Positions 44,469-62,695 are shown, numbered from the stretch's first letter. The stretch is 64,000 nucleotides of DNA from an uncultured Gammaproteobacteria bacterium (GCA_963710815.1 CAVQCA010000157.1:40271-104270), one strand, 5' to 3'. Numbers and translations: made by a program. The notes: a model not told the origin generated them from the letters alone.

Positions 44469-44969
44469 ATGGGACGTTACCGCCCGCCCGCACCGAAATC
44501 CTCCCCCTACATCACCCGGGACGGCCATCGCGCCTTGCAGGAGGAATTGAAGGACCTGTGGTTACGCCGTGCCGATGTGACCCGGGCGCTCACAGCCGCG
44601 GCAGCGGAAGGGGATCGCTCGGAGAACGCCGAATACATCTACCGCAAAAAGGAACTGCGCGAGATCGACCGGCGCCTGCGCTACCTGCAGAAACGCCTGC
44701 CGGAACTGAAGGTAGTGGCCAGTCCACCGACCCGGCCGGAGCTGATTTATTTCGGCGCCTGGGTCAGCCTGCAGGATGACGACGACCGGGAACAGGTCTA
44801 TCGCATCGTTGGCGCAGACGAATTCGACACCCGCCGGGGCTGGATCAGCATGGACTCCCCGCTGGCCCGGGCACTGATGAAAAAAACCGTCGATGACGAA
44901 GTCCTGGTCGAGACGCCCGGCGGTGCAAGGCGCTACCTTGTCGTCGGAGTCAGCTATGACACTTTCTGA
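44469..44969 (+). CDS. greB: transcription elongation factor GreB
   Basis: …[26 protein letters not shown]… and …[15 protein letters not shown]… match GreB rather than GreA; 166 aa. Confidence 0.85.
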
Positions 44970-45140
44970 TGCGGGCGCCAGGAGCCTGTCGACTTGTGCC
45001 TCCATGCACACAGTGTTTCCATTCCAGAAAGCCATGACGAGGAATAACATCTCCCGGCCTGCTATTTCATTTCGGGCTGGACTTGTCTGGTCGGATCAAA
45101 CTGATACAGATAACCGGAGGCCCCGTTTGCCTTTATCGAG

Positions 45141-46628
45141 TCAAGCCTGCTTTCCAGCCTTGTCCAGGAAATAGAGCAGGAATCGTTCATCGTCCATTCC
45201 GGATTTATTCCACACATGAGAAAACACCAGCCAGACCCGATTGAACCCATCCACTTTCTCTACATCGGCAAGATAATCATCCCATGTCTTCCGCGAAGAA
45301 TTTCCCCGGATCACAGCCTCGGCGGGTATATCGTAACGTGCCTGATAGTACCTGAAAGCCATATCTGCCCCATAGTAGACATAAACCTTATCATCCGGTT
45401 CTCTTGATTTTCTAATATACTCCAGAACAGTCTTAATATCTTCTTTCACATAAGGCACGTTGTGGAGGCATTTGACAGTGCACCCATCACCGAACTAAAC
45501 AGCAGCATAACAATAACAACATACCATGCAGCACGGTATTCACTCCCTGTTATTTGCCACATGGCTTCGAGGCCAGCGGCGATAACGATAATCGTTCCCG
45601 GCACAAGGAAGTTTAACAAACGGGTACTAAACGGATATTCGTGAAAAGCGGATGCGACAAGCACAATAAGAACAGGCAGAACGAGCATGCCTGACCACAA
45701 CGGTTATTTCTCCAAATATAAATCAGCCGATAAGAAACAGGAGCGCAGCCACCCCAACTGCACTGAAACCAACAGGGTTGCCGAAGAAGTCAATAAAATG
45801 CGACCAGTACCAGCGAATGTCGGCAAATGATATTGGCGGGAAAGGTGCAAATGCGTCTTTCCAGTAAATATTTATCATCTTCGATAATGTCGCTGACCCC
45901 GCAGAAGAGCCTATACTGGATATTGCGTAGAGACCGAACGCGAAACTCCCGATCCAGAGAATCGATGACATTGCTATTCGAGCTACATCGAACCATTGCT
46001 TCTTCAGAAGAAACTGCGTTCCCGCACAAAGACCGATAGCGGCAAGAATAAATGCGGCCGGATGCGATAACCACACACCAAGAATGCCTGCCATGGTCAA
46101 CAATAACCAGCGCCGGATATTCCATTCCTCCAGGCTGTAGGCAGCTGCCAGATATAAAATCAGGGACACCATAATGTCCGAGGAGTATTGCTTGACTTCC
46201 GCGGCGTAATAAATCGCCCAGTGTGAGACAGAAAATATTGCCAACGCGATAATGGCTATCCGCGCCCCGAATAGCTTTAGTGCCAGCTTGTATACGCAAA
46301 AGACAGAGACTATTCCCGCGACCAGAGGGTAGAGTCGCAGGATATATTCATTACCCCCAAAACACCTGACAGCCAGGGTTTCAATAAGCAGAAACCCTAC
46401 GGGTGCCATTTGGTCATTCGCCAAAGGGTGAAATATGCTCCACACGGGAGTATGAACAAAATTCAGGGCCAGCTGACCCTCGTCAATCCACAATGAGCGA
46501 TTGCCGAGGTAATGCTTGATGCGGAAGAAAAGACCGATACCGATGAAAAACAGTACGCCGTAACGGTATCCAGTATTGCCAAACCAGCCCGAAGCCTTGC
46601 CAGCGGTCTTGCGCCCTGTATTTCTCAT
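45141..46628 (-). pseudogene. GT39/GT83-type (ArnT/PMT-like) polytopic glycosyltransferase split into three ORFs by two frameshifts; putative serotype-specific Gtr transferase
   Basis: Listed ORFs 45723..46649 (N-terminal 9-10 TM region), 45446..45700 (TM) and 45141..45458 (soluble C-terminal domain) are contiguous and co-oriented downstream of gtrB-gtrA. Confidence 0.6.
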
Positions 46629-46676
46629 ATCCATAACCTGCAGAGGCAACTCTGAAGGTTTGCTGGTTACGTAAGG

Positions 46677-47177
46677 TTATCCAGAGGAGTTGTAGTTTTT
46701 GCGTGTATGGCGAATCAGGAAATGACCTGCTCTTGTCTGAAGACGAAATACCTGGACGCATAAAAATTGAAAAACAGGGCGATGCCAAGACCCGATGGCA
46801 AGCGCCAGAACCGGATAAGTCACCATGACTGGAAACGTCTCCAGGCATATGCTGTATATCCCCAGATTAAGCAGGGCACCGATGCTTTGAACAGTAAGGT
46901 AACGGGCGTACTCGATTTTCTTGTTATTTCTTGCCTGGCTAGCGAATGTCCAGTGTCTGTTCAGATACCATGTAAGGGTTACGGCAACCGCAAATGAGCA
47001 AAGGCGCGCCCTGTACGGCCCCCAATTCAATCCGTTAACCAGTAGAGTCAGGACCGACGCATCGGCCATAAAGCCGATACCGCCGACAAATGTGAATGAA
47101 AAGAGGGGCTTATGAAGTTTTTTTGCCACAACAAATCCGGGAAAGCTGTCGTCACATATCCCGCAGGGGCATGGCAC
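46677..47177 (-). CDS. gtrA: GtrA-family polysaccharide-synthesis membrane protein (flippase-like)
   Basis: Small 4-TM protein (…FSFTFVGGIGFMAD…NRHWTF…) of the GtrA family, immediately downstream of gtrB. Confidence 0.65.
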   Translation of the reverse strand: MPCPCGICDDSFPGFVVAKKLHKPLFSFTFVGGIGFMADASVLTLLVNGLNWGPYRARLCSFAVAVTLTWYLNRHWTFASQARNNKKIEYARYLTVQSIGALLNLGIYSICLETFPVMVTYPVLALAIGSWHRPVFQFLCVQVFRLQTRAGHFLIRHTRKNYNSSG

Positions 47178-47193
47178 CGCCGTCGGCTCTTCT

Positions 47194-48195
47194 TCAAGCT
47201 ATCCGGTTATCTCCCCATCCGAAAGTATCCTTGAAAGCCAAGAAACGTGACGGCCCGGGTATACTCAAGTAGTGCAGGCGCTTTATTTCACGCCTGCCCC
47301 TGGTGACGGTGTCCAGAATCAATCCGCTTACCAGGCTCAGAAAGGCAAGGATCATTAAACCGGTCGAGAGAATTGCCGTCGGAAACCTGGGAACCAGGCC
47401 GGTTCACAGATAGGTGATCATCAATGGCCAGGCCAGAATTATTGCCACGCCAGCGAATAGTGCAAATATAGCCGCAAAAAATTGTGAGGGCCTGTCCGCC
47501 TTAACCAGCACCAGAATGGTCCCAAGTATTCGCAAGCCATGCCGGAATGTTTTCAGCTTGCTTGTTGAATTGGGTGGTCTTTCCCTGTAGGGAGTCTGCA
47601 TTTCCAGAATCGGCATTCCCAATTCCAGAGCATGGATAGTCAATTCGGTTTCGATTTCAAAGCCATTGGTCAAGACGGGAAACGACTTGACAAACCGCCG
47701 TGAAAAAACCCGATAACCAGACAACATATCACGCAAGCGGTTACCAAAAACCAGACCGGCAATTCTGGTTAAAACCACATTACCAAGCCGGTGGCCAGGG
47801 CGGTATGCGCCCTCGGCGTCAGTGATTCTCGCACCATTCACCATATCCAGAGATTTTGACAACAAGTGACCAATAAAAATCGGGGCGCTTGCCGCATCAT
47901 AGGTGTCGTCTCCGTCAACCAGCACATAAACGTCCGCCTCGATGTCGGCAAACATGCGTCGTATGACGTTTCCCTTGCCCTGCAGTTCCTCAACAAGAAC
48001 TATTGCACCAGCGGTTTGCGCCATCTGAGCCGTACGATCAGTGGAATTATTATCGCAAACATAAATAATTGCTGTGGGTAATGTCTTACGAAAATCGTTA
48101 ACCACTTTTGCGATACTGGATTCCTCGTTATAACAAGGAATCAATACTGCAGTCTTGATCGCACTTAATTCGCGCAGATGATCATACGAGTTCAT
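47194..48195 (-). CDS. gtrB: bactoprenol glucosyltransferase GtrB (GT2, Dpm1-like); frameshift near 47400
   Basis: N-terminal GT2 core (…VLIPCYNEE…DNNSTDRT…VDGDD…). The listed ORF ends …MITYL* at 47404, but the adjacent frame continues with the canonical GtrB C-terminal TM (…TGLVPRFPTAILSTGLMILAFLSLVSGLILDTVTRGRREIKRLHYL…) to the stop at 47194. Confidence 0.7.
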
Positions 48196-48399
48196 AACGT
48201 AATCACCAGAAATTCAAGAAATGCATGGAGATATTAGGAAAACATTAACCGATCACCCGACCCTACACATACCCAGTCAACCCGGACCTGTCTTCTTCCC
48301 TACCTGGCATAATTTTCCGGCCATCATGGTTCCAGAGGCTGATTTTATTGTTAGCCATACTGAGGCAGCAAGGCCAGTCTTATATCCAATTATCTGCAG

Positions 48400-48523
<124 letters not shown>

Positions 48524-48928
48524 CCTGCGGTTCGCCCCCGGGTGATAGTATCCTGTGTCGGCGGGGAGCATAGAGCCGAATAGATCGTCAGGCGGTGCAC
48601 GGGGTTTGGGCATCAGGGCAACCAGCCGGGCGATGACCTGCGCTTCTACCTGGAACATACCGGCTGGATGCCCCCCTGGCTGGCATTGTTTAGCCGGGCC
48701 GGCACGTTGTTTGGCCTGTCTCACCCTTTCACACAGCGTATCGGCCGTACAGACAAGTTTCCCGGCGATCGATGCCATCTCCACCTATTGCGAATCGTGT
48801 TCCCCCTGGTGCTTGAATATTAGCCACACGTTCCGTTCCCGGAACTCCGGGGAGTGTTTCGTTGTCTCTCCCTCATAAACCCGTCCTCTCAAGAAATGGG
48901 GTCTCCGGAAAGCCCGGAGCAAATCACT

Positions 48929-49892
<964 letters not shown>

Positions 49893-49897
49893 TAGTG

Positions 49898-49955
<58 letters not shown>

Positions 49956-50147
49956 TTACCAGTTCTCTTTAGACATGAAGAGTGCAGGCATCACACTGTC
50001 TAACAGACAAGCATAATCCAAGGCCATCATTGTCTTATAAGGAAACGTGAACCCACAGCTATTGCCGATTGGCCTGGTCACGTTTCACCTGCTGTCCTCT
50101 TTCTCCTAAAAGCCTCTCGGTTGCCTCATCAATGATCTGATCCGTGC

Positions 50148-50935
50148 TCAGGAGCGGCTCCACTGTGGAGGCAAGCCTAGAAACTCCCGGCATAGTTTTC
50201 TTGGCCTCAGCACCTTACGTGCCATCCCTTTCAATCCATGAAACATCCAGGGGCCAATACTTGGCAGTTCATGGGGCTTGTACTCCATCCCCAACGACTC
50301 ACACCAGTCCATCCACTTGAATGAATTCAACGAGTGAAATATCTTCACCGGTATCCAGCGGACACGAAGTGCATCGGCAACGATGGCCCCGTGCATAGCC
50401 TCTGTTATCAGCACTTCCGTGCGCATTACTTGATCCAATATGTCTTCGACATCACCGGACGGATCAATATGATGGATACCCGCCGACTCACAGGGTCTGT
50501 CCCAATCGATCAACTCTGCGCTCTGGTGATAGGAAAAGAAAGAGACTGGATAGTTTTTTTCCTTCCTGGGGATATCAGCCGCCCTGACGAGGATGCCCGA
50601 ATCCGTTATCGCATGCCGGCGGTCTAAGCCAAGCGCGTCTGCGCTGCGTGGTCCCCTTACGGCATAAATCGACCACTTTTCGTCAACCTTAGGTACATCA
50701 CCGTAAGCGACACCCGAACCCAGAACGATTTTCCTCGGCTGCTCCGGGATATGATGATTCAGCAGTGAACCAACACCCACGAATAGCGTCTCGGATTCAT
50801 TTGACATGAAGACTTACAGAACGCCAGGTAGGGATTATCGGTATCTATGAAAGAGCCTATCAGTTTAGGCCATAACCATATATTCAGATCATCGCCAAAA
50901 TTACCCCGCGGATTCTGATAATAGTATAATCGCAT
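50148..50935 (-). pseudogene. polysaccharide pyruvyl transferase (WcaK/ExoV family); frameshift near 50810
   Basis: N-terminus MRLYYYQNPRGNFGDDLNIWLWPKLIGSFIDTDNPY… (the canonical ExoV/WcaK start) is in one frame. The body …ETLFVGVGSLLNHHIPEQPRKIVLGSGVAYGD…WSIYAVRGPRSADALG… is in listed ORF 50148..50807. Confidence 0.65.
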
Positions 50936-51074
50936 ATTTCATATCGTACCGGGACAACAGTAGCGATGCCGTAAACCGGGTGATTCCAGGCTTCCCGAGA
51001 ATTCACGCAATGCCTTGATCAGCAAGCCATGCCACGATGGGAACTTGCAAGCCGCAACGAAAAATCAAACGTTA

Positions 51075-51527
51075 TTACTTTGCTTTTCTCCCTTCAACCG
51101 GCTTCCCGATCATCCATTTGCCACCTTGCTTTCCCGAACGTGAAGACGGGGGAGAAACTTCGAGTTCAATCCTGGCATTACGCCCGTCCGTCCAGTCGAT
51201 GGATACATTAGCATTGTAATTACCATCGGCTTTCTTTGTAATATCGTTCAGTACAAAACTGGCGCCCGAATAGTAGTTTCTCAGAAACTCTCCGGTGTCT
51301 CCTTGTTTCGATCAAACAGAGTACGATACTCATCATATGATTTCCCATTGAGGTACTGTTTGATCACTGCAACATTTCCCTCCTTCATGGCCTGGAACAA
51401 CGGTAAAAACGAGGTGTCGCGTACCACCCTGAACGTCTCCGGGTCATTGTCTCTCAGCCCTGGGAATGAGCGAAAGTCAAAGGGAGCAGTAGACCAAGCA
51501 GGGTAAGAAAAGACATTCGCCGCATAG
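51075..51527 (-). pseudogene. small exported hypothetical protein (signal peptide MRRMSFLTLLGLLLPLTFAHS) with two or more frameshifts
   Basis: Manual translation of three frames: signal peptide, then …GLRDNDPETFRVVRDTSFLPLFQAMKEGNVAVIKQYLNGKSYDEYRTLFDRNKETPE…, then …FLRNYYSGASFVLNDITKKADGNYNANVSIDWTDGRNARIELEVS…GKWMIGKPVEGRKAK*. Confidence 0.45.
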
Positions 51528-51535
51528 GTTATACC

Positions 51536-52339
51536 TCATTGCGTTAGGGCATTGAACGACTGATTGGCCAAGCCCTGATAGCCCAGGCCGTTGGGATGGA
51601 TATTGTCGTAATATTCCGTGGTATAGGTTGCCTTAAAGTAGTTGTAGAGATCCGGGCGGGATAACAGAAATATTGTTTCCCGCGATAGCACGCAACTCAT
51701 CAATTACGACATTATATTCCTGTATCAACAGACTCCGCGCACCATTGTCCGGATCAGGATAAGGTGTTGTATTAGTGCTGTCACCAAGCGCAATATTTAT
51801 TTTGGAAAGGATGACTTCATGACCCTTGCTGTTTATTGCGCTGATGATCTGCTGCATATTGTCCTTGAACGAACCTGCATATCCGGGGTCCCCTTTACTC
51901 AGCCCTTCACCACTCGGAACGGGTAGCCATGGCCTGGCATCATTCATGCCGTAGAGCACCAGATACCTTTTGGCTGCAGCGTACCTGTCCAACATCAACT
52001 GGCGGAAATAATCTGGCCAATCCACCGGCGGAGGTCTCACCTTGGTGGCCTTCATTCTTGACCGTATGGGGTATGCCAGTAAAGTTTGTCAGCAGATTGT
52101 TAAGAATCGGTTCATACCCACCAACGTACGGGATGGGATCACTAAAGTCCGGCGGGGGAGGACCATTGCGGCTATCGGCCGAGACATTGTCGCTGCTGAT
52201 ATCATCGCCATAACCCCAGGTAATGCTGTCACCCATCGCGACATAATATTGAATATTGGCTCACAAATGCCGCCGCAGAAGGCGGGAACAGGCTGACCGC
52301 CAACAGGAGCAGCAATACACCCCTATCGATGTTCATGGA
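51536..52339 (-). pseudogene. SGNH/GDSL-family hydrolase with signal peptide; three or more frameshifts
   Basis: MKFLASMNIDRGVLLLLLAVSLFPP… signal peptide. Block I GDSITWGYGDD is in ORF 51940..52236, the middle is in ORF 51633..52055, and block V …YDNIHPNGLGYQGLA… is in a third frame ending at 51536. Confidence 0.6.
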
Positions 52340-52934
52340 AGCAAGAAATTTCATCTGAAATACCCGAATCTTTTAGATAACAGCGCCTTAACCAAATGAT
52401 CCAAACTCGTTTCTGAGAGATATGCTAATGATAATAGATTAAAATGATATCCAATCAAAGAATATAGTCCCTTGGTACGAATCGGTTTATGGAGAAGCGG
52501 TTGAGTAGAGGACGATCATCATCCTCGCAGGCACTTTGGAGGTGCGAATCAGACCCCACCGGGTATCCGGAAGATACCCCAAGGTTATTATTAGTTTGAC
52601 CAGAAAGTCGGTGGGATTGCAAGGACTTTATGTATTGACAGTTATGAAAGCGGGCGGTGAATCAGATGCAAAAACGGCGCCGGATAAGCGGTATCGCTTC
52701 GTTCTTTGTAGCAGCTGTGGACCCCACAGTCCGTCGCCATGATAGCCACGCTGCCCGCCGGCTTCGTCGTCTGTTGCTGTTGGGTCCACGTGCATCTGGT
52801 CTACACCCAATGCCAGGAAATCCGTGATCACTGTATCGTCGCGGATTCTACCAGCAGACAGGCAAGACCCGCTGGAGATATGAGATCTCTCGTTTACATT
52901 TTCCCATTCATTAATCCTGAATAAAGGGTAGACA

Positions 52935-53913
52935 ATGCGACCTGTGTATTTCCTGTTTCCAAGAATGCGAATCAATAGCGGCGGGCACATTGCCCAGATA
53001 AAGTTTTTTAATCTGGCAAAATCAATCTGCCAGGCTTATGCAGCCACATACAAGGAAAAGGACCAGGACGATATTTTTCTGGATGATGTCCTTAAACAGG
53101 ATGTCGATGATGAAGCGATATATGTCGTTCATTGGGGCCCCGATGTTCAACATCTTCTGCAAATACTTTCTAATAAACATGTTGTTTATTTTGCTCATAG
53201 CAGTGGCTGGAACATCCGTATACCTTCTGAAATACCAATAGTTGCAGTAAGCAAACACACACAAGCCTTTTGGGGCAAACACGCACCTAATTCATTGATT
53301 TACTATCTGCCCAATATACTTTCTGAAAACTATACCCAGCTACAGCAACACCGCTCAATTGACGTTCTTGTGCAGAAAAGGAAATCTTCCAGATATTTAC
53401 TTGAAGAACTTGTTCCCGCCTTGAAACAAAGCTGCAATGTTGAGGTGCTAGATTCATGGGTCGATGATTTGGCAGAGGTTTTTAACAGAACTAAAGTGTA
53501 TCTATACGATTCTACCGATCACTGGCACCAGATTGGTGCGATTGAATGACTTTCGCTTGCCTCCGCTGGAAGCTATGGCATGCGGGTGCACCGTGATTAA
53601 CCATTGTAAACGATGCCGAGAGTGATTACCTGGATCGTGGATTGAATTGTTGACAAGTTACTCAGTGCAAACAAGGCAATACGACATTGACCGGATTGCA
53701 GAAGCCGTCAAACTGTACAATAGTAATCATCGTCTCAACCAATATGCCGAACTGATCGCGCAGTACAGAGAGCCCTGCATCAAGATGCGATTCACAAGGA
53801 TATTAGGTAACATTAACGAATTCTTTGATTGCACAAAAGGTTCAGAAGCCGATATTCCTGTCCTGGAAACACCTTCAAATTATTCTCAACTAGAGCAAGC
53901 ATCAACAACATAA
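52935..53913 (+). pseudogene. GT4-family glycosyltransferase; three or more frameshifts
   Basis: N-terminal domain is in ORF 52935..53549. The GT4 E-x7-E region …FRLPPLEAMACGCTVI… is in a second frame, and the C-terminus (…DRIAEAVKLYNSNHRLNQYAELIAQY…) is in ORF 53647..53913. Confidence 0.6.
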
Positions 53914-54161
53914 TCCCTTCATCTCTTAAGAGTAGCCGAAAAGTTCACCTTGAATCAAAGGTTTTGGTGTCGTAGCCAGAAATTGCTGAAAATGCACCAT
54001 TAAGGTTGTATCGACAAATCCGACATCCAGGGGATTCTGAAGAACGGATTATCTAGCATCAGGACGCTGAAAGCAAACGGGGAATTAACGTACGATACAC
54101 CACTCACGCCGGTATTGGCATTATAATACTCTCCTCGATTAACGACTTATCGGTAACCACC

Positions 54162-54542: not shown

Positions 54543-55178
54543 GTGAACGCCATGCCATTTCGCACCAACCGCCCCTTGCAGGGCATGCTGATCTGGCTGG
54601 TGCTGATATGGGTGGTCACCGCAATCGAGCCCTTCGACCGCCGAGACTGGCTGCTGGAGAATCTGCTGGTCTTTCTCTACGGCTTCCTGTTGCTGGTTAC
54701 CTACCGGCGCTTCGCCTTCTCCAACCTCTCCTACGGGTTGTTCACCGTGTTCCTCAGCCTGCATCTGATCGGCGCCCATTACACCTACGCCGAAACGCCG
54801 CTCGGCTACTGGCTCCAGGAACTGTTTGACCTGCAGCGCAATCACTATGACCGCCTCGTGCACTTCTCCTTCGGCCTGCTGATTGCCTACCCGTTTCGCG
54901 AATTGCTACTGCGCGCGGCGGGCGTGCGCAAATCATGGTCATACCTGCTCGCCGTGACGCTGGTGCTGGCGTTCAGCGGCATCTATGAAATCATCGAGGC
55001 CATCGTCGCCGAAATCGTGAGTCCCGAACTCGGCTCCGCCTATCTCGGCACCCAGGGTGATGAATGGGACGCCCAGAAGGACGCCTTCGAGGCTTTTGTC
55101 GGCGCCGTCGTCGCCATGACCATCACCTGGATGTCGCTGCGCTCGCCCCGGTCACCGGACACAGGCGACAGCGGGTAA
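54543..55178 (+). CDS. DUF2238 (YjdF-like) inner-membrane protein
   Basis: About 200-aa polytopic protein (…LIGAHYTYAETPLGYWLQELF…NHYDRLVHFSFGLLIAYP…) resembling the YjdF family, recalled from memory. Confidence 0.5.
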   Translation: MNAMPFRTNRPLQGMLIWLVLIWVVTAIEPFDRRDWLLENLLVFLYGFLLLVTYRRFAFSNLSYGLFTVFLSLHLIGAHYTYAETPLGYWLQELFDLQRNHYDRLVHFSFGLLIAYPFRELLLRAAGVRKSWSYLLAVTLVLAFSGIYEIIEAIVAEIVSPELGSAYLGTQGDEWDAQKDAFEAFVGAVVAMTITWMSLRSPRSPDTGDSG

Positions 55179-55499
55179 ACGCTTGCTCCGACAGCGCCCA
55201 CCACCAGGATCTGGCGCCCCCCTCTCGCGGATGCTATCGTGAAATAGCCTCTGGAATGAACGGGGCCTGGTTAAACCTGATCACATCACTATGGCCACGG
55301 AACCACACGGAAAAGCGGAGTACGAGCTCTTTTTTCGATGTCTTCCGTGCACTTCCGTGGCGATTTATCGCGTCTGGGCCTTAACCACGTACCCTTCATC
55401 CCGGACCGGCAATACCGAATCGATCGCCATGCCAGACCCAGTTACACTTCGCCATGAACGGTCATACTCACCGCTACGACAGGCGGCTCTTCACCTGTC

Positions 55500-57320
55500 A
55501 TGAACGAATTCAGCACCAACGAGCCGCCGTCGACCAGTGGCGCCGGACACGGCCTTATCGCGAGGATCATCGCCCGGCTGGCGCAGCGCTACCGGGATAC
55601 TCCGCCGCCGCTGGATACGAACGAGTTGAGCCGGCGGCTGGCGGCGTTGGAGCTGACCGAAGCGGCGCTGCGCGATATCGCCGCCCTGGACGGGCCGGCG
55701 CCGCGCCCCCTGCAGGTGGCCGTGGTGGGGCCGACCCAGGTCGGCAAGAGCACCGTCGTCAACCTGCTGCTCGGCCAGGGTGTGGCCGAGGTCAGCCCGC
55801 TGGCCGGCTTCACCATTCACCCGCAGGGATTCGCGCTGCCGTCGCGGGAGGCGAATCCGGACTGGATCAAACCCTTCTTCCCAGGTTGGGAACGGCTCGA
55901 GAACACAGCCCCCAGCCGCGACCGCCTCGATTGCTACGCCTTGCATCACCTCACCGGCGACGCGCACGGGCTGCCTTCCGGCACCGTGGTCTGGGACACG
56001 CCCGACTTCGATTCCTTCAAGGCCCATACCTACCAGCGCGGCGTGCTTGAAGTCGCCGCGCTGGCCGACGTCATCGTGCTGGTGGTAAGCAAGGAAAAAT
56101 ATGCGGATCTCTCGGTATGGAAAACCCTGCAATTGCTGGAGCCCCTGCAGCGCGCCCTGCTGGTGTGTCTGAACAAGACCGGGGACAACACCCGGGACGT
56201 GCTGGTACAGGCCTTGCGGACACGCCTCGCCGAGCTGACACCCCTGGCGGAGAACATCGAAGTCATTGCCATGCCCTACTGGCCGGGGATCGATGCACCC
56301 GTGAGTGCTCCTCCTGGTGAGGTGGCCGATCTGCGCGCGGCGCTCGGGCGCGCGCAGACCGGCACCGACCGCAGCCTGCGCGCCGCCGGAGTGCGCAGAC
56401 TGCTGCAACAGCACTGGGGCGCCTGGATGGAGCCGGTACGCGTCGAGCTCGAAGCCGCCGCGATCTGGGAGCAGTCCATCGAGGCAGCCATCAAACAGGC
56501 GCTGGCAGCCTACCGGGACGAATTTCTGGACCATCCGAAACGCTTCGACACCTTCCGCCTGGCCATTCTGGAACTCCTGCAGCTGCTGGAATTACCCGGT
56601 CTGGCGCGATCGCTGACACGTGTGCGCCAGGTGCTCACCTGGCCGGCACGCCAGCTCTTTGATTCCCGACGCATGAAATCCCTCACCGGCCGCCTGCGCG
56701 GCAAGGCGGTGCATGACCTGCCCGGCGAGGAGCTTGTCCTGCGTGACCTGCTGGAGCAGCTGCTCACCACGCTCTCGCGTGACGCCCTGCGCCGCGGCAC
56801 GCCGCAAACCCCGGGAGCAGCCTTCTGGCAGGCGCTCGGCCAGCGCCTCGTCGAGCGCCAGACGGAACTTACCGAACAGTTCGCCGCGGCCATCCACCGC
56901 CACCACCTCGACTTCCAGCCGGAGATCGAGGCCGCGGCTCACGACCTGTACGCCAACCTTCAGCAGAAACCCGCCCTGCTCAACACCCTGCGGGCGGCGC
57001 GCGTCACCACCGACGCCGCGGGTGTCGCCCTGGCCCTCAAGACCGGGGGCGTGGGACTCAACGACCTGCTGTTCGCACCGGCGATGGTGTCGCTGACCTC
57101 CATGCTGACCGAGGGTGCACTGGGATCCTACATGACGCACGTCGCCGGGCGGTTGAAGCAGCGACAGTACGCAGCCGTGGAAAAGAGGGTATTCACCGGT
57201 GCGGTCAAAGCGGCATTGCTGGGTCTAACCGAAACCCTCGATGCCCCCGGTCTCTTCGGAATCACGCGAACGGAGTACGAGGCAGCGGAACAGGCACTGA
57301 GGGCGTGGCGGCATGACTGA
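55500..57320 (+). CDS. large P-loop GTPase (dynamin-like / MMR_HSR1-like) with non-canonical switch II DTPDFDS; paralog of the downstream gene
   Basis: G1 GPTQVGKST, G2-like TIHP, DxPDxDS in place of DxxG, G4-like LNKTGD, and a roughly 400-aa helical C-terminal region. It overlaps the next gene by 8 nt (ATGACTGA). Confidence 0.7.
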   Translation: MNEFSTNEPPSTSGAGHGLIARIIARLAQRYRDTPPPLDTNELSRRLAALELTEAALRDIAALDGPAPRPLQVAVVGPTQVGKSTVVNLLLGQGVAEVSPLAGFTIHPQGFALPSREANPDWIKPFFPGWERLENTAPSRDRLDCYALHHLTGDAHGLPSGTVVWDTPDFDSFKAHTYQRGVLEVAALADVIVLVVSKEKYADLSVWKTLQLLEPLQRALLVCLNKTGDNTRDVLVQALRTRLAELTPLAENIEVIAMPYWPGIDAPVSAPPGEVADLRAALGRAQTGTDRSLRAAGVRRLLQQHWGAWMEPVRVELEAAAIWEQSIEAAIKQALAAYRDEFLDHPKRFDTFRLAILELLQLLELPGLARSLTRVRQVLTWPARQLFDSRRMKSLTGRLRGKAVHDLPGEELVLRDLLEQLLTTLSRDALRRGTPQTPGAAFWQALGQRLVERQTELTEQFAAAIHRHHLDFQPEIEAAAHDLYANLQQKPALLNTLRAARVTTDAAGVALALKTGGVGLNDLLFAPAMVSLTSMLTEGALGSYMTHVAGRLKQRQYAAVEKRVFTGAVKAALLGLTETLDAPGLFGITRTEYEAAEQALRAWRHD

Positions 57321-59016
57321 CCGGCTCACACGACTGCGTGGTCAGGTCGGCGCCTGGATCAGCCGCGCGCAGACCATGGCATGGGTCGACACGGTGGAAC
57401 TACAGGCGCTGCAACGCCTGGAACAGCACACCCCGGCAGATCTGTTCAGCCGGGGGCAGCCCGCCCGCCCGCTGGTGGTGGCATTTTTCGGCGGCACCGG
57501 CGTAGGCAAGAGCAGCCTGCTCAACCGCCTTGCCGGACAAAACATCGCGCGGGTCGGCGTGGAGCGCCCGACATCCCACGAGGTCACCGTCTACGTGCAT
57601 GAAGCGGTGGAGCTGGCTACCCTGCCGGAGCACTTTCCCGTGGATCAGGTGCACATCGCGCGACATGCCGATAAGGCACGACGTGATGTCCTTTGGATCG
57701 ACATGCCGGATATCGACAGCACCGAACAAAACAACCGGGAACTGGCCTTTGCCTGGCTGCCCCATATCGACCTGCTGGTCTATGTGGTCAGTCCCGAACG
57801 CTACCGCGACGACATCGGCTGGCGGGTATTGCACCAGCGCGGCCACCGTCACGGCTGGATGTTCGTCATGAATCGCTGGGACGAAGGTGCTCCCGAACAG
57901 CAGGACGACCTGCTCACCATCCTGCATGAGGCCGGGTTTGCCGACCCGGTGGTGCTGCACACCTGCAGCGGTGACAGGCCCTGCCCGGATGACCGGTTCG
58001 CGGAGCTGGAAGCCTCCATCCGGGAAGTGCAGGCACAGCACGGCCAGCGGGAGCTGGAGCGGCTCGGACATCTGGCTCACCTGCATGACCTGGCCGCCCT
58101 GCTGCAGGCGGCGCTGCAGCGCCTGGGCACGCCGGCTGAGTGGGCCAACCTTCAGGCCGGGTTTCGACGGGAATGGGCAAGCACGGCGGTAGCGATCGTG
58201 GACGGCATGACCTGGCCCATCAAGGAGATTGGCGCGGAATTCGCCAGCCGCGATGCCGGTCTGCTGACCCGGCTGATCGGAAATCGCGAGGAATCGACGC
58301 CGGCAAGCCGTCAGGAACCGGGGAGCGCGCGCCCCGCAACACGAACCGCCATGGAACAGCAGGCGGTCACCACCCTCTGGGATAGCTGGGCGCAGGGCAA
58401 GCTGGCCGAGGTCTGCGACACCCTGGAGATCGCACTGCGACGCATCGACGTCGCCCCGCAGCCGCTGCTTACACGCCTGCAAGAGGTCACCGGGGACGCC
58501 GGTCGGACAGTCAGCCAGCGGCTGCAACAGTCCCTGCGGTTGGGACTCGCCCACCCCGGGACGGCATGGCAGCGGGCGCTGCGCCGCGGCACCGCTGCCA
58601 CGCTCAGCGTGCTGCCCATTGCGGCCCTGCTGTGGGTGTCCTACCAGGTGGTCACCGGCTTCCTGCATGGTGCCACCGGGCAGGCGGCCTACCTCGGGGT
58701 CAACTTCGCCATCAACAGCGCGCTGCTGGTGCTGGTCGCCTGGCTCCTGCCCTTCCTGCTGCACCGTCGCCTCAAACCCTCCCTGGAAACGACCGTGACA
58801 CGCGCGCTGCACACGGGCCTCGAACTCGGACTGGAGGAACTCCATGCCAGGGCGGAAACGGCATTCGCCGCGGCCGATGCGGAACGCGAGCGGCTGCTGG
58901 CCGAGGCCGGGAAGCTTCTCGAGGAACTGGGTCGGCACGGCGATGAGCCGCACCCGGCTCCCGGCGCCGCCGTGGCCCGCCTGCTCCCGGTGCAGGCACG
59001 TCCCGAAACCGCCTGA
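57313..59016 (+). CDS. large P-loop GTPase paralog with a C-terminal transmembrane hairpin (dynamin-like; possibly GTPase+DUF3482-type)
   Basis: G1 GGTGVGKSS, TSHE, DMPDIDS and NRWD in the same order as the upstream paralog. Two hydrophobic helices lie near the C-terminus (…LSVLPIAALLWVSYQVVTGFL…, …AINSALLVLVAWLLPFLL…). Confidence 0.7.
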   Translation: MTDRLTRLRGQVGAWISRAQTMAWVDTVELQALQRLEQHTPADLFSRGQPARPLVVAFFGGTGVGKSSLLNRLAGQNIARVGVERPTSHEVTVYVHEAVELATLPEHFPVDQVHIARHADKARRDVLWIDMPDIDSTEQNNRELAFAWLPHIDLLVYVVSPERYRDDIGWRVLHQRGHRHGWMFVMNRWDEGAPEQQDDLLTILHEAGFADPVVLHTCSGDRPCPDDRFAELEASIREVQAQHGQRELERLGHLAHLHDLAALLQAALQRLGTPAEWANLQAGFRREWASTAVAIVDGMTWPIKEIGAEFASRDAGLLTRLIGNREESTPASRQEPGSARPATRTAMEQQAVTTLWDSWAQGKLAEVCDTLEIALRRIDVAPQPLLTRLQEVTGDAGRTVSQRLQQSLRLGLAHPGTAWQRALRRGTAATLSVLPIAALLWVSYQVVTGFLHGATGQAAYLGVNFAINSALLVLVAWLLPFLLHRRLKPSLETTVTRALHTGLELGLEELHARAETAFAAADAERERLLAEAGKLLEELGRHGDEPHPAPGAAVARLLPVQARPETA

Positions 59017-59036
59017 CGGGATGCCGGCCGGATACC

Positions 59037-59300
59037 ATGGACCTTTCGAAATCGGGTGTCTGGTACATGATCCTCTGCTGGGTGTCGGCGATCGGCGGCA
59101 TCGTGACGGCTATCCTGTGGGCCGCCTCGAAAGGTCGCCCCCCGGTCGATGACGCATTGCTGCGCACGTCCCTGGAACGTCGCCTGAAATCCGGGGAAAT
59201 CAGCCAGGCGGAATACGAGCAAAGGCGTGAGCAATTGCGATTGGGACAAGTCCCCAGGCCGGAACCCGCCCGCGGTAGGAAACCACCACCACGGACGTAA
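59037..59300 (+). CDS. SHOCT-domain small membrane protein
   Basis: N-terminal TM helix (VWYMILCWVSAIGGIVTAILWAA) followed by the SHOCT-like motif …LERRLKSGEISQAEYEQRREQL…. Confidence 0.55.
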   Translation: MDLSKSGVWYMILCWVSAIGGIVTAILWAASKGRPPVDDALLRTSLERRLKSGEISQAEYEQRREQLRLGQVPRPEPARGRKPPPRT

Positions 59301-59555
59301 CAGTCACGCACCGCTCGCCGGACTGGCGACCGGGCCGGTCACAGATCCCGCCGTAAAAACACCATCGAAGCCGGCCAGGGCTTGCGCCCGGCGATCAATC
59401 GGGTCGCCCGCGAACATGATGTTTCATATTCAACGGGCAAATGCCGGTCCGCGTGCGTGGAGGGTGTCGATTCCAGAGGGACCGACAAGCCTCGTATTGG
59501 TGCGCCACCGCGGCCTGTGTATAGTAGGTTCACCGTCTGCACCTGCTTACCGGAT

Positions 59556-60467
59556 ATGACCATGGCTGTTCAGCCGACCCTACCGCCAGCCACTCCGCCG
59601 CCCTCTCCACTGAAAGAGATCGGCGTGAATCTCATTGACAACCCGGGTCAGTGGCTGGAAGGTGTGCTGCGCGAATTGACCACGGCGCTCAAGACACTCC
59701 TGCCACACCTGCTGGAGGCACTGGCGCTGCTCCTCGTTGGCTGGCTGGCGGCCTTTCTCATGCGCTGGCTGGTCAACCGTTTTGGCAAGGGGCTGGACGT
59801 GATTATGGCGGCTATCCACCGCTGGCTCGGCCAGGAAGTCACCCGGCCACGCTGGTCGGTCACGAGCCTGGTCGGCAATATCGCCTTCTGGATCACGCTT
59901 GCCTACGCCCTCAGCGCCGCAGCGGAACAGGTCGGTCTGGTCACCTTCGCCAACTGGGTGCTGGGGCTGCTCGGCTATCTGCCGCGGGTACTGATCAGCG
60001 CCTTCATCCTGTTCATCGGCTACCTGATCAGCAGCGGCATACGCAACATGATCGTGACGCTCGCCGATGCCAGCGGCTTCCAGCACGGGATTTCCCTCGG
60101 TCACCTGTCAGCGGGTTTGATCCTCGCCTTCACCCTGCTGCTCGGCCTCAGCCAGCTCGGGCTCGATGTCAGCCTGTTCGCCAACATCATCCTCCTGGCG
60201 GCGGCAGCGCTTTTCGGCAGCGCCGCGATCGCCTTCGGCATCGGCGCCGCCGACGCGGTGCGCAACGTCATGGCCTCGCACTATGTGCGCAAGGTCTACC
60301 GGACCGGACTGCGGGTGCGCGTGCAGGGACTGGAGGGCGAGATTCTGGAGTTGACACCGGTGGCGGTGGTCATGGAAACCGCGGACGGTGAGGCCCTGAT
60401 CCCGGCACGCCATTTTCTGGAAACCGTATCCATGATCGTCGATGAGCAGGAGGCCGGCCGTGCTTGA
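59556..60467 (+). CDS. MscS-like mechanosensitive-channel-family protein (TM-helix repeats plus a short MscS beta-domain-like C-terminus)
   Basis: Repeated conserved-TM-helix segments and a C-terminal …VRVQGLEGEILELTPVAVVMETADGEALIPARHFLETV… that resembles the MscS middle beta-domain. Start chosen at MTMAVQ. Confidence 0.5.
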   Translation: MTMAVQPTLPPATPPPSPLKEIGVNLIDNPGQWLEGVLRELTTALKTLLPHLLEALALLLVGWLAAFLMRWLVNRFGKGLDVIMAAIHRWLGQEVTRPRWSVTSLVGNIAFWITLAYALSAAAEQVGLVTFANWVLGLLGYLPRVLISAFILFIGYLISSGIRNMIVTLADASGFQHGISLGHLSAGLILAFTLLLGLSQLGLDVSLFANIILLAAAALFGSAAIAFGIGAADAVRNVMASHYVRKVYRTGLRVRVQGLEGEILELTPVAVVMETADGEALIPARHFLETVSMIVDEQEAGRA

Positions 60468-61293
60468 TGCCCTCACCAAAGGGTACCTCACCCGGCACCC
60501 GGCCGCCGCAGCGCGCACCCTGGCGCGTCTCGACAGCCGCGATCTCCAGGCCGTCTTTCAGGCCATGCCACGCCAGCTGGCCGCCAGTGTGCTGGAACAC
60601 ATGCCTCCGGTCTCGATTGTTCGATGCCTTGCACAGCTACAGTCCAGGACGGCAGCCGAGATCCTGATGCGCATCCCGTCGCTGACGGCCGTGGCGGCGT
60701 TGCGCCAGATGAACACCGACCAGGTAAAGAGACTGTTCGCCGCAATGCCGCGCGCGGCCGCCGCGCGGCTGCGGCTGCGTCTGCGCTACCCGGAAACGCT
60801 GGTCGGCTCCTTCGTGGATGCGGATGTGCTGACCTTCAACCTGGAACAGCGCGTGGGCGATGCGCTGCGGCTGGTGCGCCGCGTCGGCCAGCGCGTGGGC
60901 CACACGCTCTACGTACTGGATGAGCATCGCCGCCTCGCGGGTGTAGTCGACCTGAGCGATCTCCTCGGTGAGCGCGATCGCAGCAGGATCCAGCGGGTGC
61001 TGCGTCCCGCACCTATGGTGCTTAATGCACGGACGGCGCTGCAAACGGTCTCCAGTCATCCGGCCTGGCTTACCCACGACAGCCTGCCGGTAGTCAACCG
61101 CGAGGGCGTGTTTCAGGGCGTACTGTCGCGCTCCAGGGTGATGACGGAAGAACACCAGCTGTTCACCGAGGTGGCGGAACGCAATGAGCTCTCCATCACC
61201 CGAACCGCTCTGGCGGATATCTTCTGGCTGAGTGTGGCGTCGCTCTTTACCGGCAACAGCGGCTCGACCACGCGTCACAAGGTGAAGGACTGA
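60442..61293 (+). CDS. soluble MgtE-N/CBS-domain protein (MgtE lacking the transmembrane domain)
   Basis: Resembles the N-domain and CBS pair of MgtE (…VLDEHRRLAGVVDLSDLL…) but has no TM segments. It overlaps the upstream gene by 26 nt and ends 1 nt before mgtE. Confidence 0.6.
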   Translation: MSRRPAVLDALTKGYLTRHPAAAARTLARLDSRDLQAVFQAMPRQLAASVLEHMPPVSIVRCLAQLQSRTAAEILMRIPSLTAVAALRQMNTDQVKRLFAAMPRAAAARLRLRLRYPETLVGSFVDADVLTFNLEQRVGDALRLVRRVGQRVGHTLYVLDEHRRLAGVVDLSDLLGERDRSRIQRVLRPAPMVLNARTALQTVSSHPAWLTHDSLPVVNREGVFQGVLSRSRVMTEEHQLFTEVAERNELSITRTALADIFWLSVASLFTGNSGSTTRHKVKD

Positions 61294-61294
61294 G

Positions 61295-62602
61295 ATGAAA
61301 CCGGGACTCGACAACGCCATCCATATCCTGCAGCGTGACCTCATCGAAGACCACCCGGACGATGCCGTGCAGCTGCTGGAGCGGCTGCCGCCCGCGGAAA
61401 TCGCCGACGTCCTGTCCCGGCATCCCGTGACGGTGGCTGCTCCCGTCTGGGAACGGCTGTCGCCGGACATCGGCTGGCGGGCCATCGCAACCCTGGCGGA
61501 ACCCCGAACGACGGAGGTGCTGCGACACATAAGCGCCCCGCGTGCCGCGGCCCTGCTTGCCATGGCTGACCCGCAAACCCGTGAGGGACAGCTGGCGCGA
61601 CTGCCGGCCACCGCTGCGGACGAACTGCGCACCATTCTTTCCTACCCGGCCGATTGCGCGGGCGCCCTGATGGACCCGCGCGTGCTGCTGTTGCGTCCCG
61701 AGACCACGGTGAACGAGGCCCTGGCCCGCATCCGCGGGCTGCGAAGGCGCGGTGTGCACATGCTCTTCATCGTGAATGCAGAAAATCACCTCGAGGGCGA
61801 GGTGGATATCCAGGATATCGCCACCGCAAGCGGAACCACGCGTATCGAGGAGATTCAGCACCCGGTACGGGCGGTGGTCGATGCGATTTCACCGCGTGAG
61901 GAAGTGGTGGACATCCTGGAGCGCTACCGCCTCACCGACCTCCCGGTGGTGGATGCCGAGGGCCGCCTCATCGGCGCCGTGCGCTATCGCAACCTCATGG
62001 CCGCCGCCGAGGACGAGGCCACGGTCGCCATGCAGACGATGGTGGGCGTCAGCAAGGACGAGCGCGCCCTGTCGAAGGTATCCTTCGCGGTGCGCAAGCG
62101 ACTGCCCTGGCTGCACATCAATCTGGCAACCGCCTTCCTGGCCGCCTCCGTCGTCGGCCTGTTCGAGAATACGATCGCCAAATACACCGCGCTGGCCGTG
62201 CTGTTGCCAATCGTGGCCGGACAGGCCGGGAACACCGGCGCCCAGGCGCTCGCCGTCACCATGCGCGGCCTGGCGCTGCGCGAAATCCGCATTCGACACT
62301 GGCCGCGGGTCGTCTTCAAGGAGATGTCCACCGGCTTCTGGAATGGAGCCGCCATCGCCACCACCACCGCCCTTGGGGTCTGGGTATGGAGCGGGTCCAC
62401 CGGACTGGCTGGGATCATCGGCGTTTCCATGATCCTGTCCATGGTCATCGCCGCGATCTTCGGCGCGGCCATCCCTCTGGTGTTGACGGCGATCGGTCAG
62501 GACCCCGCGCAATCCTCAATTATCGTGCTGACGACTATCACGGACGTCACCGGCTTCTTCAGCTTCCTCGGCATCGCCACGCTCTTTTCGGGTTATTTGT
62601 AG
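61295..62602 (+). CDS. mgtE: magnesium transporter MgtE (full-length: N-domain, CBS pair, 5-TM pore domain)
   Basis: …ADELRTILSYPADCAGALMDPRVLLL…, a CBS pair, then the TM domain with …VGLFENTIAKYTALAVLLPIVAGQAGNTGAQ… (MgtE signature). Confidence 0.85.
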   Translation: MKPGLDNAIHILQRDLIEDHPDDAVQLLERLPPAEIADVLSRHPVTVAAPVWERLSPDIGWRAIATLAEPRTTEVLRHISAPRAAALLAMADPQTREGQLARLPATAADELRTILSYPADCAGALMDPRVLLLRPETTVNEALARIRGLRRRGVHMLFIVNAENHLEGEVDIQDIATASGTTRIEEIQHPVRAVVDAISPREEVVDILERYRLTDLPVVDAEGRLIGAVRYRNLMAAAEDEATVAMQTMVGVSKDERALSKVSFAVRKRLPWLHINLATAFLAASVVGLFENTIAKYTALAVLLPIVAGQAGNTGAQALAVTMRGLALREIRIRHWPRVVFKEMSTGFWNGAAIATTTALGVWVWSGSTGLAGIIGVSMILSMVIAAIFGAAIPLVLTAIGQDPAQSSIIVLTTITDVTGFFSFLGIATLFSGYL

Positions 62603-62604
62603 GA

Positions 62605-62691
62605 GTTCAATGGGGTCAGACTCGATTGATCGTGAATTTTTCAATCGGTTACCACATACCGTACGATCAATCGAGTCTGACCCCATTGAAC
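62605..62691. terminator. bidirectional hairpin terminator (29-bp perfect inverted repeat, 29-nt loop containing TTTTT) between convergent mgtE and the DASS transporter gene
   Basis: GTTCAATGGGGTCAGACTCGATTGATCGT-(29 nt)-ACGATCAATCGAGTCTGACCCCATTGAAC, placed exactly between the two stop codons (62600-62602 and 62696-62698). Confidence 0.6.
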
Positions 62692-62695
62692 TTTG

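Follow-up and report, generated by a model that had tools for sequence, protein, structure and literature searches.

Do six genes that run in one direction with hardly any space between them make one functional system, when two encode unusual GTPases and the others a small membrane protein and what looks like a magnesium channel with accessories? The question is raised by positions 55500-62602 of a 64,000-nt stretch of DNA from an uncultured Gammaproteobacteria bacterium (the window; coordinates are counted from its first letter). A first-pass annotation had described this block as a compact operon that couples two paralogous GTPases to a SHOCT protein, an MscS-like protein and a split MgtE, and had suggested a membrane-stress/ion-flux module or a dynamin-type defence system. 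The best explanation, and a probable one, is that the block consists of two independent modules that have become adjacent in one gammaproteobacterial lineage only, the SHOCT gene standing in the middle. Module A (55500-59016) consists of two divergent dynamin-like/mitofusin-like GTPases, here called G1 and G2, whose genes are translationally coupled, and module B (59556-62602) is a trio of genes ending in mgtE. The six genes are listed below (aa, amino acids; TM, transmembrane; ORF, open reading frame; AF2, AlphaFold model).

55500..57320, + strand: G1, predicted soluble dynamin/mitofusin-like GTPase, 606 aa (ORF, Pfam, AlphaFold model)
57313..59016, + strand: G2, predicted membrane-anchored dynamin-like GTPase, 567 aa (ORF, Pfam, hydropathy, AF2, Foldseek)
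59037..59300, + strand: SHOCT membrane protein, 87 aa (Pfam SHOCT 28.7 bits, cutoff 27; hydropathy)
59556..60467, + strand: mini MscS-like membrane protein, ~303 aa, first trio gene (Pfam MS_channel_1st_1 38.8 bits; mechanical ORF 59382-60467)
60442..61293, + strand: soluble protein with MgtE_N and a CBS pair, 283 aa, second trio gene (MgtE_N 57.5 bits, CBS 41.3 bits)
61295..62602, + strand: full MgtE Mg2+ channel, 435 aa, third trio gene (Pfam MgtE 104.6 bits, MgtE_N, CBS)

The six same-strand ORFs and every junction that had been listed were found again: the 8-nt overlap of G1 and G2, where the start of G2 lies over the stop of G1 (ATGACTGA), the 20-nt gap from G2 to SHOCT, the 26-nt overlap of the first two trio genes, and the 1-nt gap before mgtE. 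The claimed compactness stands for these, and fails for the junction from SHOCT to the MscS-like gene, which had been left out. The mechanical ORF of gene 4 opens at TTG 59382, 81 nt from SHOCT (homologs are 291-303 aa long); the true start is probably ATG 59556, which we prefer because the ~303 aa product then matches the length of homologs of 301-303 aa. With that start the gene begins ~255 nt after SHOCT, and the block is therefore less compact than had been noted. Pfam recovered the domains that had been called: MMR_HSR1/Dynamin_N in both GTPases, SHOCT, MS_channel_1st_1, MgtE_N plus CBS in a protein without TM segments, and a full MgtE.

The modules were separated by their distribution. 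Relatives of G1 came from exact-protein look-ups, one genome locus, and 80 of the 424 loci encoding G1 relatives that a G1-alignment scan found in Joint Genome Institute (JGI) metagenomes; loci were labelled using six-frame ORFs, hidden Markov models (HMMs) for G1 and G2, and phmmer with the other four proteins. G2 lies directly 3' of G1 in 89 of the 90 loci, the exception being at a contig edge, and the two overlap by 4-11 nt in called genes. Genes of the MgtE module, by comparison, are present in 5 of the 38 loci having at least 4 kb past G2, and all five have a G1 at least 69% identical to that of the window. SHOCT or module genes are further found in two shorter loci, which brings the number to seven (L001, L002, L007, L008, L014, L015 and L017); G1 is at least 69% identical in 7/7, and this close clade is also the only place where the SHOCT gene stands beside the pair. 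In the other 33 of 38, all of them relatives whose G1 is at most 59% identical, the pair stands with none of the SHOCT, MscS-like or MgtE genes. Relatives at 44-59% identity have unrelated neighbours: a methyl-accepting chemotaxis protein, a porin and FeoB; the Rnf complex; or a PglD-like acetyltransferase with exopolysaccharide (EPS)/exosortase genes. Clustering of neighbours revealed no universal third gene beside the pair, only lineage-specific synteny.

The trio, for its part, occurs with no GTPase or SHOCT gene nearby in three distant contexts: the isolate Thiosocius teredinicola CP019936, a contig with a protein source-named Chromatiaceae, and a third metagenome contig (L011 7091-10142, L012 7091-10143 and L013 7133-10144). 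There it comprises an MscS-like protein of 291-302 aa, a 277-aa MgtE_N/CBS protein and a 435-aa MgtE, with junctions ranging from a 2-nt gap to an 8-nt overlap; the trio is thus kept in several gammaproteobacterial lineages. Conserved linkage had been named beforehand as the test of the six-gene block, and what is found is the pair without the channel genes and the channel genes without the pair. The claim of a conserved dynamin-ion-channel unit is accordingly lost, and nothing found indicates that modules A and B work together.

The GTPases belong to a family without a dedicated model. An HMM search of 1.84 billion cluster representatives (50% identity) returned 383 proteins at E 1e-30 or better, with source names including Thiohalobacteraceae, Gammaproteobacteria, Burkholderiales, Phycisphaerae and Planctomycetota. 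No NCBIfam model reached its cutoff against either GTPase. Likeness to known GTPases at the sequence level is confined to the ~40 residues from P-loop to switch I, where MMR_HSR1, Der/EngA, Era, YlqF and PDB profiles match, along with a local match of PADLOC LeoA. A faint match of G1 to the NCBIfam 'slr1306 family' led nowhere; that locus tag is named in one unrelated paper.

Alignments of 48 sequences each for G1 and G2 were the input to AlphaFold, which gave models with a mean predicted local confidence (pLDDT) of 81.9 and a predicted TM-score (pTM) of 0.78 for G1, and 83.6 and 0.72 for G2. In both models there is a G domain, with helices at the N-terminus and long helices that make up a further ~350 residues; in this arrangement the G domain is predicted to be flanked by N- and C-terminal helical bundles of the type seen in bacterial dynamin-like proteins (BDLPs) and mitofusins. 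In Foldseek searches of the PDB, members of the dynamin superfamily came top for either model, with E-values of 1e-10 to 1e-6 and alignments of approximately full length; the best matches were Nostoc BDLP 2j68/2j69 (E 4e-10 for the G2 model against 2j68), Cj-DLP1/2 5owv/5oxf, IniA, Fzo1, mitofusin, EHD and SynDLP. Among traits of the BDLP/mitofusin clade, neck and trunk helices flanking the G domain and a pair of adjacent genes are both found, as is a membrane tip region in G2; the canonical G1-G4 motif set is lacking. The earlier suggestion of a bacterial dynamin-like pair is borne out to this extent: the models support one, with one partner membrane-anchored.

That partner is G2, whose predicted TM hairpin was seen again by hydropathy and in the AF2 model at residues 429-485 (nt 58597-58767). 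In the model the hairpin lies between long helices at the position of the BDLP paddle, and is followed by a long returning helix (residues 491-544, 54 residues), a mitofusin-like order. A weak Pfam MgtE match on the hairpin (E 7e-4) was rejected, since hhalign of this segment against the MgtE of the window gave a probability of 0.4%. The P-loop of G2 is GGTGVGKS (residues 60-67) and its G4 motif is NRWD (residues 187-190), N[QHR]WD across the family. G1 has no TM segment by hydropathy. Its P-loop is GPTQVGKS (residues 77-84, nt 55728-55751), its switch-I Thr is T105, and its G4 is NK with no Asp at the canonical specificity position; the missing NKxD Asp leaves the base specificity of G1 uncertain as judged from sequence. 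A strongly conserved, glycine-rich hydrophobic segment of G1 at ~500-540, of low pLDDT in the model, is a candidate paddle or partner interface. The paralogy that had been claimed for the two GTPases holds across the G domain (hhalign 98.8% over 140 columns; BLASTP 28% over 148 residues) and not beyond it. The two share a motif, S-x-E-[KR]-Y-x-D-x-x-x-W, after the next strand beyond G3.

What is unusual in the pair is the G3 motif itself. Both partners have DxPD[FI]DS instead of DxxG: WDTPDFDS in G1 (residues 165-172, nt 55992-56015) and WIDMPDIDS in G2 (residues 128-136, nt 57694-57720). The first-pass annotation had singled this out in the window as DTPDFDS and DMPDIDS, and it proves to be invariant across the family, in 86/86 complete G1 and 80/80 G2 sequences that cover the G domain in the 90 loci, down to ~35% identity; no DxPG revertant occurs among them. 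The invariant positions are W165, D166, T167, P168, D169, F170 and D171 in the G1 alignment and W128, D130, P132 and D133 in that of G2. The pattern does not look like decay, because the P-loop, switch-I Thr and Walker-B Asp also stay invariant in both GTPases. In GTPases generally the DxxG glycine touches the gamma-phosphate through its backbone and allows switch II its movement, and in Ras-like GTPases substitution of this glycine impairs the switch-II transition and hydrolysis. Nucleotide binding may be kept here, with the hydrolysis or switch mechanism modified; the proteins could be slow or locked GTPases, or the G3 Asp could coordinate a cation or water. Tentatively, G1 and G2 could represent an undescribed and widespread subclass of bacterial mitofusin-like heteropairs, hosted by sulfur-oxidiser-type Gammaproteobacteria and Planctomycetota/Phycisphaerae, among others, in which the G3 Asp is essential, in a catalytic or regulatory role, in both subunits. 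Literature searches on a DxxG-to-DxxD dynamin variant, or on the G1/G2 pair, found nothing relevant.

The architecture of the pair is of a known kind. Most bacterial dynamin-like proteins (DLPs) are encoded as side-by-side pairs in operons (PMC6104087), and Streptomyces DynB, the partner of DynA, is described in PMC8748795 (citing Schlimpert et al. 2017) as having a two-TM anchor. Pairing with one TM-anchored member is therefore no novelty among bacterial DLPs. G2 would sit in the cytoplasmic membrane and recruit soluble G1 into a heterotypic complex; nucleotide-dependent dimerisation of the G domains, together with hinge movement of the helical bundles, would leave the membrane tethered, stabilised or resealed. 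The working model follows the action proposed for Cj-DLP1/2, for DynA/DynB of Streptomyces and for IniA.

Comparison with individual systems shows where the family differs. Cj-DLP1/Cj-DLP2 (5owv/5oxf; PMC6104087) are likewise encoded by adjacent same-strand genes, have ~600-700 aa each with neck and trunk bundles, and rank high in the structural comparison of either model (TMq up to 0.40); they form a heterotypic complex, as G1 and G2 may do. Identity to them is 10-12%, however, neither has a predicted TM hairpin like that of G2, and their operon includes an HcpA-like gene that is absent here. DynA/DynB share the combination of a soluble and a two-TM-anchored DLP encoded side by side, and differ in that they work with FtsZ and SepX in sporulation septation; genes for partners of this kind are not linked to G1 and G2. 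Nostoc punctiforme BDLP1 (2j68/2j69) and Mycobacterium IniA (6j72), top Foldseek matches of both models over approximately the full length, share the order G domain, neck, trunk and then membrane-inserting tip; they differ in identity (12-15%), in having an amphipathic paddle or lipid-binding loop and no TM hairpin, and in a canonical G3. Mitofusin/Fzo1 (9kfd, 5yew, 6jfk) are eukaryotic fusion proteins of the outer mitochondrial membrane with DxxG and 13-16% identity. Their kinship with G1 and G2 is a predicted structural likeness and need not mean direct descent. We take the Cj-DLPs to have a canonical DxxG, and the G3 motif of DynA/DynB presumably differs from DxPD.

Two features of the neighbourhood of the pair in other lineages may be mentioned. 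(i) In 31 loci among L032-L092, the clade in which G1 identity is ~35-41%, a small ORF lies ~68 nt 5' of G1; it encodes a lipoprotein-like signal sequence and is always transcribed divergently from the pair. In 24 of these or related loci there is also an upstream gene whose sequence looks coiled-coil-rich by eye. The small lipoprotein-like ORF or the coiled-coil gene could be a lineage-specific partner or plain synteny. (ii) In eleven loci (L006, L010, L023, L025, L029, L030, L034, L042, L047, L048 and L068), typed as Planctomycetota/Phycisphaerae by neighbour content, not taxonomy, a convergent gene for a PglD-like acetyltransferase lies 3' of the pair, followed in 9/11 by a cluster of polysaccharide-export, exosortase (EpsH) and tetratricopeptide repeat (TPR) genes; the association is lineage-stable.

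Turning to the genes downstream of the pair, the SHOCT protein has its TM segment near the N-terminus (residues 7-31) and the domain for which it is named at the C-terminus. The first trio protein had been called mechanosensitive-channel-like, which is correct for its N-terminal TM-helix family and at most borderline beyond it. It has the TM-helix repeats of PF05552 and a short C-terminus resembling a beta-domain; the NCBIfam msc model matches only its N-terminal part, at 39.5 bits (cutoff 100), and the comparison with the TM3-beta region of PDB MscS/YnaI is borderline (E ~0.4). With ~70 residues after its last TM segment, the protein is too short to contain the C-terminal domain of MscS; an MscS core (TM3, beta-domain and C-terminal alpha/beta domain; Pfam MS_channel) was not found in gene 4.

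The split MgtE that had been noted, a TM-less MgtE_N/CBS protein ahead of a full MgtE, was found by Pfam and hydropathy. Gene 5 yields 277 aa if started at GTG 60460, as in homologs, which form a conserved 277-aa family. Its product has no TM segment, matches the cytosolic domain of Thermus thermophilus MgtE (2yvy) at E 5e-13, and aligns with residues 12-235 of the neighbouring MgtE at 28% identity (E 2e-19); it is thus a free-standing paralog of the Mg2+/nucleotide sensor of MgtE. Gene 6 encodes MgtE_N, two CBS domains and the MgtE TM domain, all found by Pfam, and matches TIGR00400 mgtE over nearly its full length at 229.9 bits, just below the equivalog cutoff of 232.75. Thus gene 6 has the same N-domain/CBS/TM layout as T. 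thermophilus MgtE (2yvx/2yvy), and gene 5 corresponds to the isolated cytosolic domain; the difference from that system is that the sensor is here duplicated as a separate TM-less protein, always encoded between the mini MscS-like gene and mgtE. Module B may accordingly be pictured as an Mg2+ uptake channel with an extra regulatory subunit, in which the gene 5 product would modulate MgtE gating and the mini MscS-like protein would be an accessory membrane subunit. The literature searched yielded no account of such a gene arrangement.

Several points weigh against the account of an independent dynamin-like pair and an independent trio. At the level of Pfam, Dynamin_N scores 19.6 bits for G1, under the cutoff of 27, and 31.4 bits for G2, in a match local to the P-loop (profile positions 1-34). 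The structures are predicted, the geometry of stalk and paddle included, and their TM-scores to full-length BDLPs are low (0.2-0.4), as is to be expected from hinge conformations if the models are right. A membrane-remodelling function is suggested by analogy only, and the change from glycine to aspartate could mean that GTPase activity has been lost. With regard to independence, the six-gene order is stable in the close clade, G2 and SHOCT are 20 nt apart and no internal terminator was detected; co-transcription and a lineage-specific functional link are possible. Independence of the trio rests on the three distant contexts given above.

Loss of activity is the basis of the main mechanistic alternative, that G1 and G2 are nucleotide-binding, catalytically dead 'pseudo-dynamins' that serve as static membrane scaffolds or tethers. 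The aspartate that replaces the DxxG glycine in every member of both paralogs, the missing NKxD Asp of G1, and the impairment of hydrolysis generally known for glycine substitutions in Ras-like GTPases would all fit such proteins. Yet the GKS, switch-I Thr and Walker-B Asp are invariant down to ~35% identity, which argues for a working active site, and the invariance of the replacing Asp itself suggests a gained role; we consider the dead scaffold unlikely.

More unlikely is that the six genes form, after all, one membrane-stress/ion-flux operon in which the dynamin pair acts with SHOCT, MscS-like protein and split MgtE. The shared strand and tight junctions speak for such an operon, as do the stable order in seven close relatives and the failure of a terminator/promoter scan to find any terminator-like site or strong promoter inside the block. 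The module-bearing loci, however, also share their outer flanks, with DUF2238 and a glycosyltransferase family 2 (GT2) gene upstream and a CitMHS/TrkA_C transporter gene downstream, so that ordinary vertical synteny among close relatives suffices to explain the order. Linkage is lost outside the clade with at least 69% identity in G1, the trio is conserved alone elsewhere, a gap of ~255 nt precedes the MscS-like gene, and in L002 G2 and SHOCT are separated by a DUF2237 gene. In 59301-59555 the promoter scan gave no convincing candidate; by eye, TTGGTG, 17 nt and TATAGT can be made out there, which is weak evidence for a separate promoter.

Very little credence can likewise be given to the idea that the pair is a dynamin-type defence against phages akin to Eleos (LeoA/LeoBC), in which the channel genes might be the effectors. 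PADLOC LeoA matches G1 at E 9e-8 and G2 at 4e-11, LeoA is among the structural matches, and membrane binding by Bacillus subtilis DynA is, according to the abstract of PMC12998192, needed for phage defence; Eleos also belongs to the same superfamily and has paired genes. The LeoA/LeoBC matches (LeoBC at E 0.049 and 6e-4) nonetheless span ~30-50 residues at the P-loop out of profiles of 559-601 positions, and PADLOC gave no full-length match to LeoA plus LeoBC, or to LeoB plus LeoC. G1 and G2 lack the split LeoB/LeoC architecture and the mobile-element association of Eleos (PDLC03839/03841). Neither 72,556 plasmid records nor 50,697 phage records contained a homolog by tblastn, and the loci show no defence-island or mobile context with patchy spread: neighbours are housekeeping genes (Rnf, ClpX, cysS, amidase, EPS/exosortase), with lineage-stable synteny and no variable islands. 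The absence of plasmid and phage homologs together with this stable housekeeping order favours vertical inheritance over a mobile defence island, and the proposed defence-like function is left with no positive support. A reading of the proteins as GTPases of Era/EngA type that associate with ribosomes or RNA and bear unrelated helical extensions, and not as membrane remodellers, has the best sequence-level matches (MMR_HSR1, Der/EngA, Era, YlqF) in its favour and is hardly credible, given that those matches cover ~40 residues far under family cutoffs, that whole-model comparison ranks BDLP, mitofusin and IniA first, and that G2 has a TM hairpin.

The two independent modules, then, are set in surroundings with some features of their own:

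55179..55499, no strand: intergenic gap, 321 nt, before G1
62604..62692, no strand: perfect inverted repeat, 30-nt arms (62604-62633 and 62663-62692) with a 29-nt spacer
45723-46649, - strand: PMT_2-like gene
46677-47177, - strand: GtrA gene
47404-48195, - strand: GT2 gene
50148-50807, - strand: pyruvyl transferase gene

The upstream gap had been put at 320 bp and is one longer. In close relatives, a GT2 gene for a product of 884-886 aa stands between DUF2238 and G1 (L007 6246-8906, with a weak GH17 match; L002 6252-8906; L008 6258-8918). We assume that it resembles NdvB-type glucan synthases. The glycosyltransferase of L007 finds no trace of this gene in the window by tblastn, so the 321-nt gap marks a difference in gene content.

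Downstream, a perfect hairpin of 29 bp had been taken as the terminator of the block. The hairpin is there, with 30-nt arms and a folding energy of -66 kcal/mol (z -11.9). No second copy exists in the window, and the repeat takes up all of the space between mgtE and the CitMHS/TrkA_C transporter gene, which converge. Its role as terminator is in doubt: the terminator scan did not call it (long loop, no T-run), and the lack of a T-run means that it is not a canonical intrinsic terminator. The repeat is absent in the close relative L007, where the same gap is 26 nt. It may mark the transcript ends of both genes as a bidirectional hairpin, or be no native terminator and instead a small palindromic element that was inserted here. 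Rfam revealed no M-box or other riboswitch or RNA 5' of either module; the 64-kb window (1-64000) lacks tRNA genes and gives no Rfam match that reaches gathering score, and the only sub-threshold Rfam match, to Guanidine-II within G2, was taken as chance.

Further upstream, between greA (44469-44969) and the DUF2238 gene (54543-55178), ~9 kb (44980-54100) have a low GC content, 0.41-0.50 against ~0.6-0.65 around. This stretch, which holds the PMT_2-like, GtrA, GT2 and pyruvyl transferase genes listed above, is absent from the syntenic relatives L007, L008 and L017, and is probably a horizontally acquired glycosylation island.

For annotation, the 'dynamin plus ion channel' block is a lineage-specific juxtaposition, and its spread through annotations as a new system for defence or ion flux should be avoided. 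Its two parts have separate interest. The trio suggests an unstudied mode of MgtE regulation. Bacterial DLPs are few and poorly understood, and serve as models for mitofusin-type membrane fusion and repair; the family described here would add to them a heteropair of a soluble and a TM-anchored partner. This pair keeps the nucleotide-binding elements except the DxxG glycine, which is Asp in both partners, and so would offer a natural experiment on switch II in dynamin-type catalysis. Should the tentative reading of an essential G3 Asp in both subunits be true, the hydrolysis or switch mechanism would be unlike that of every characterised member of the dynamin superfamily, and might take the form of an Asp-coordinated cation or water, or of an obligate heterodimeric active site.

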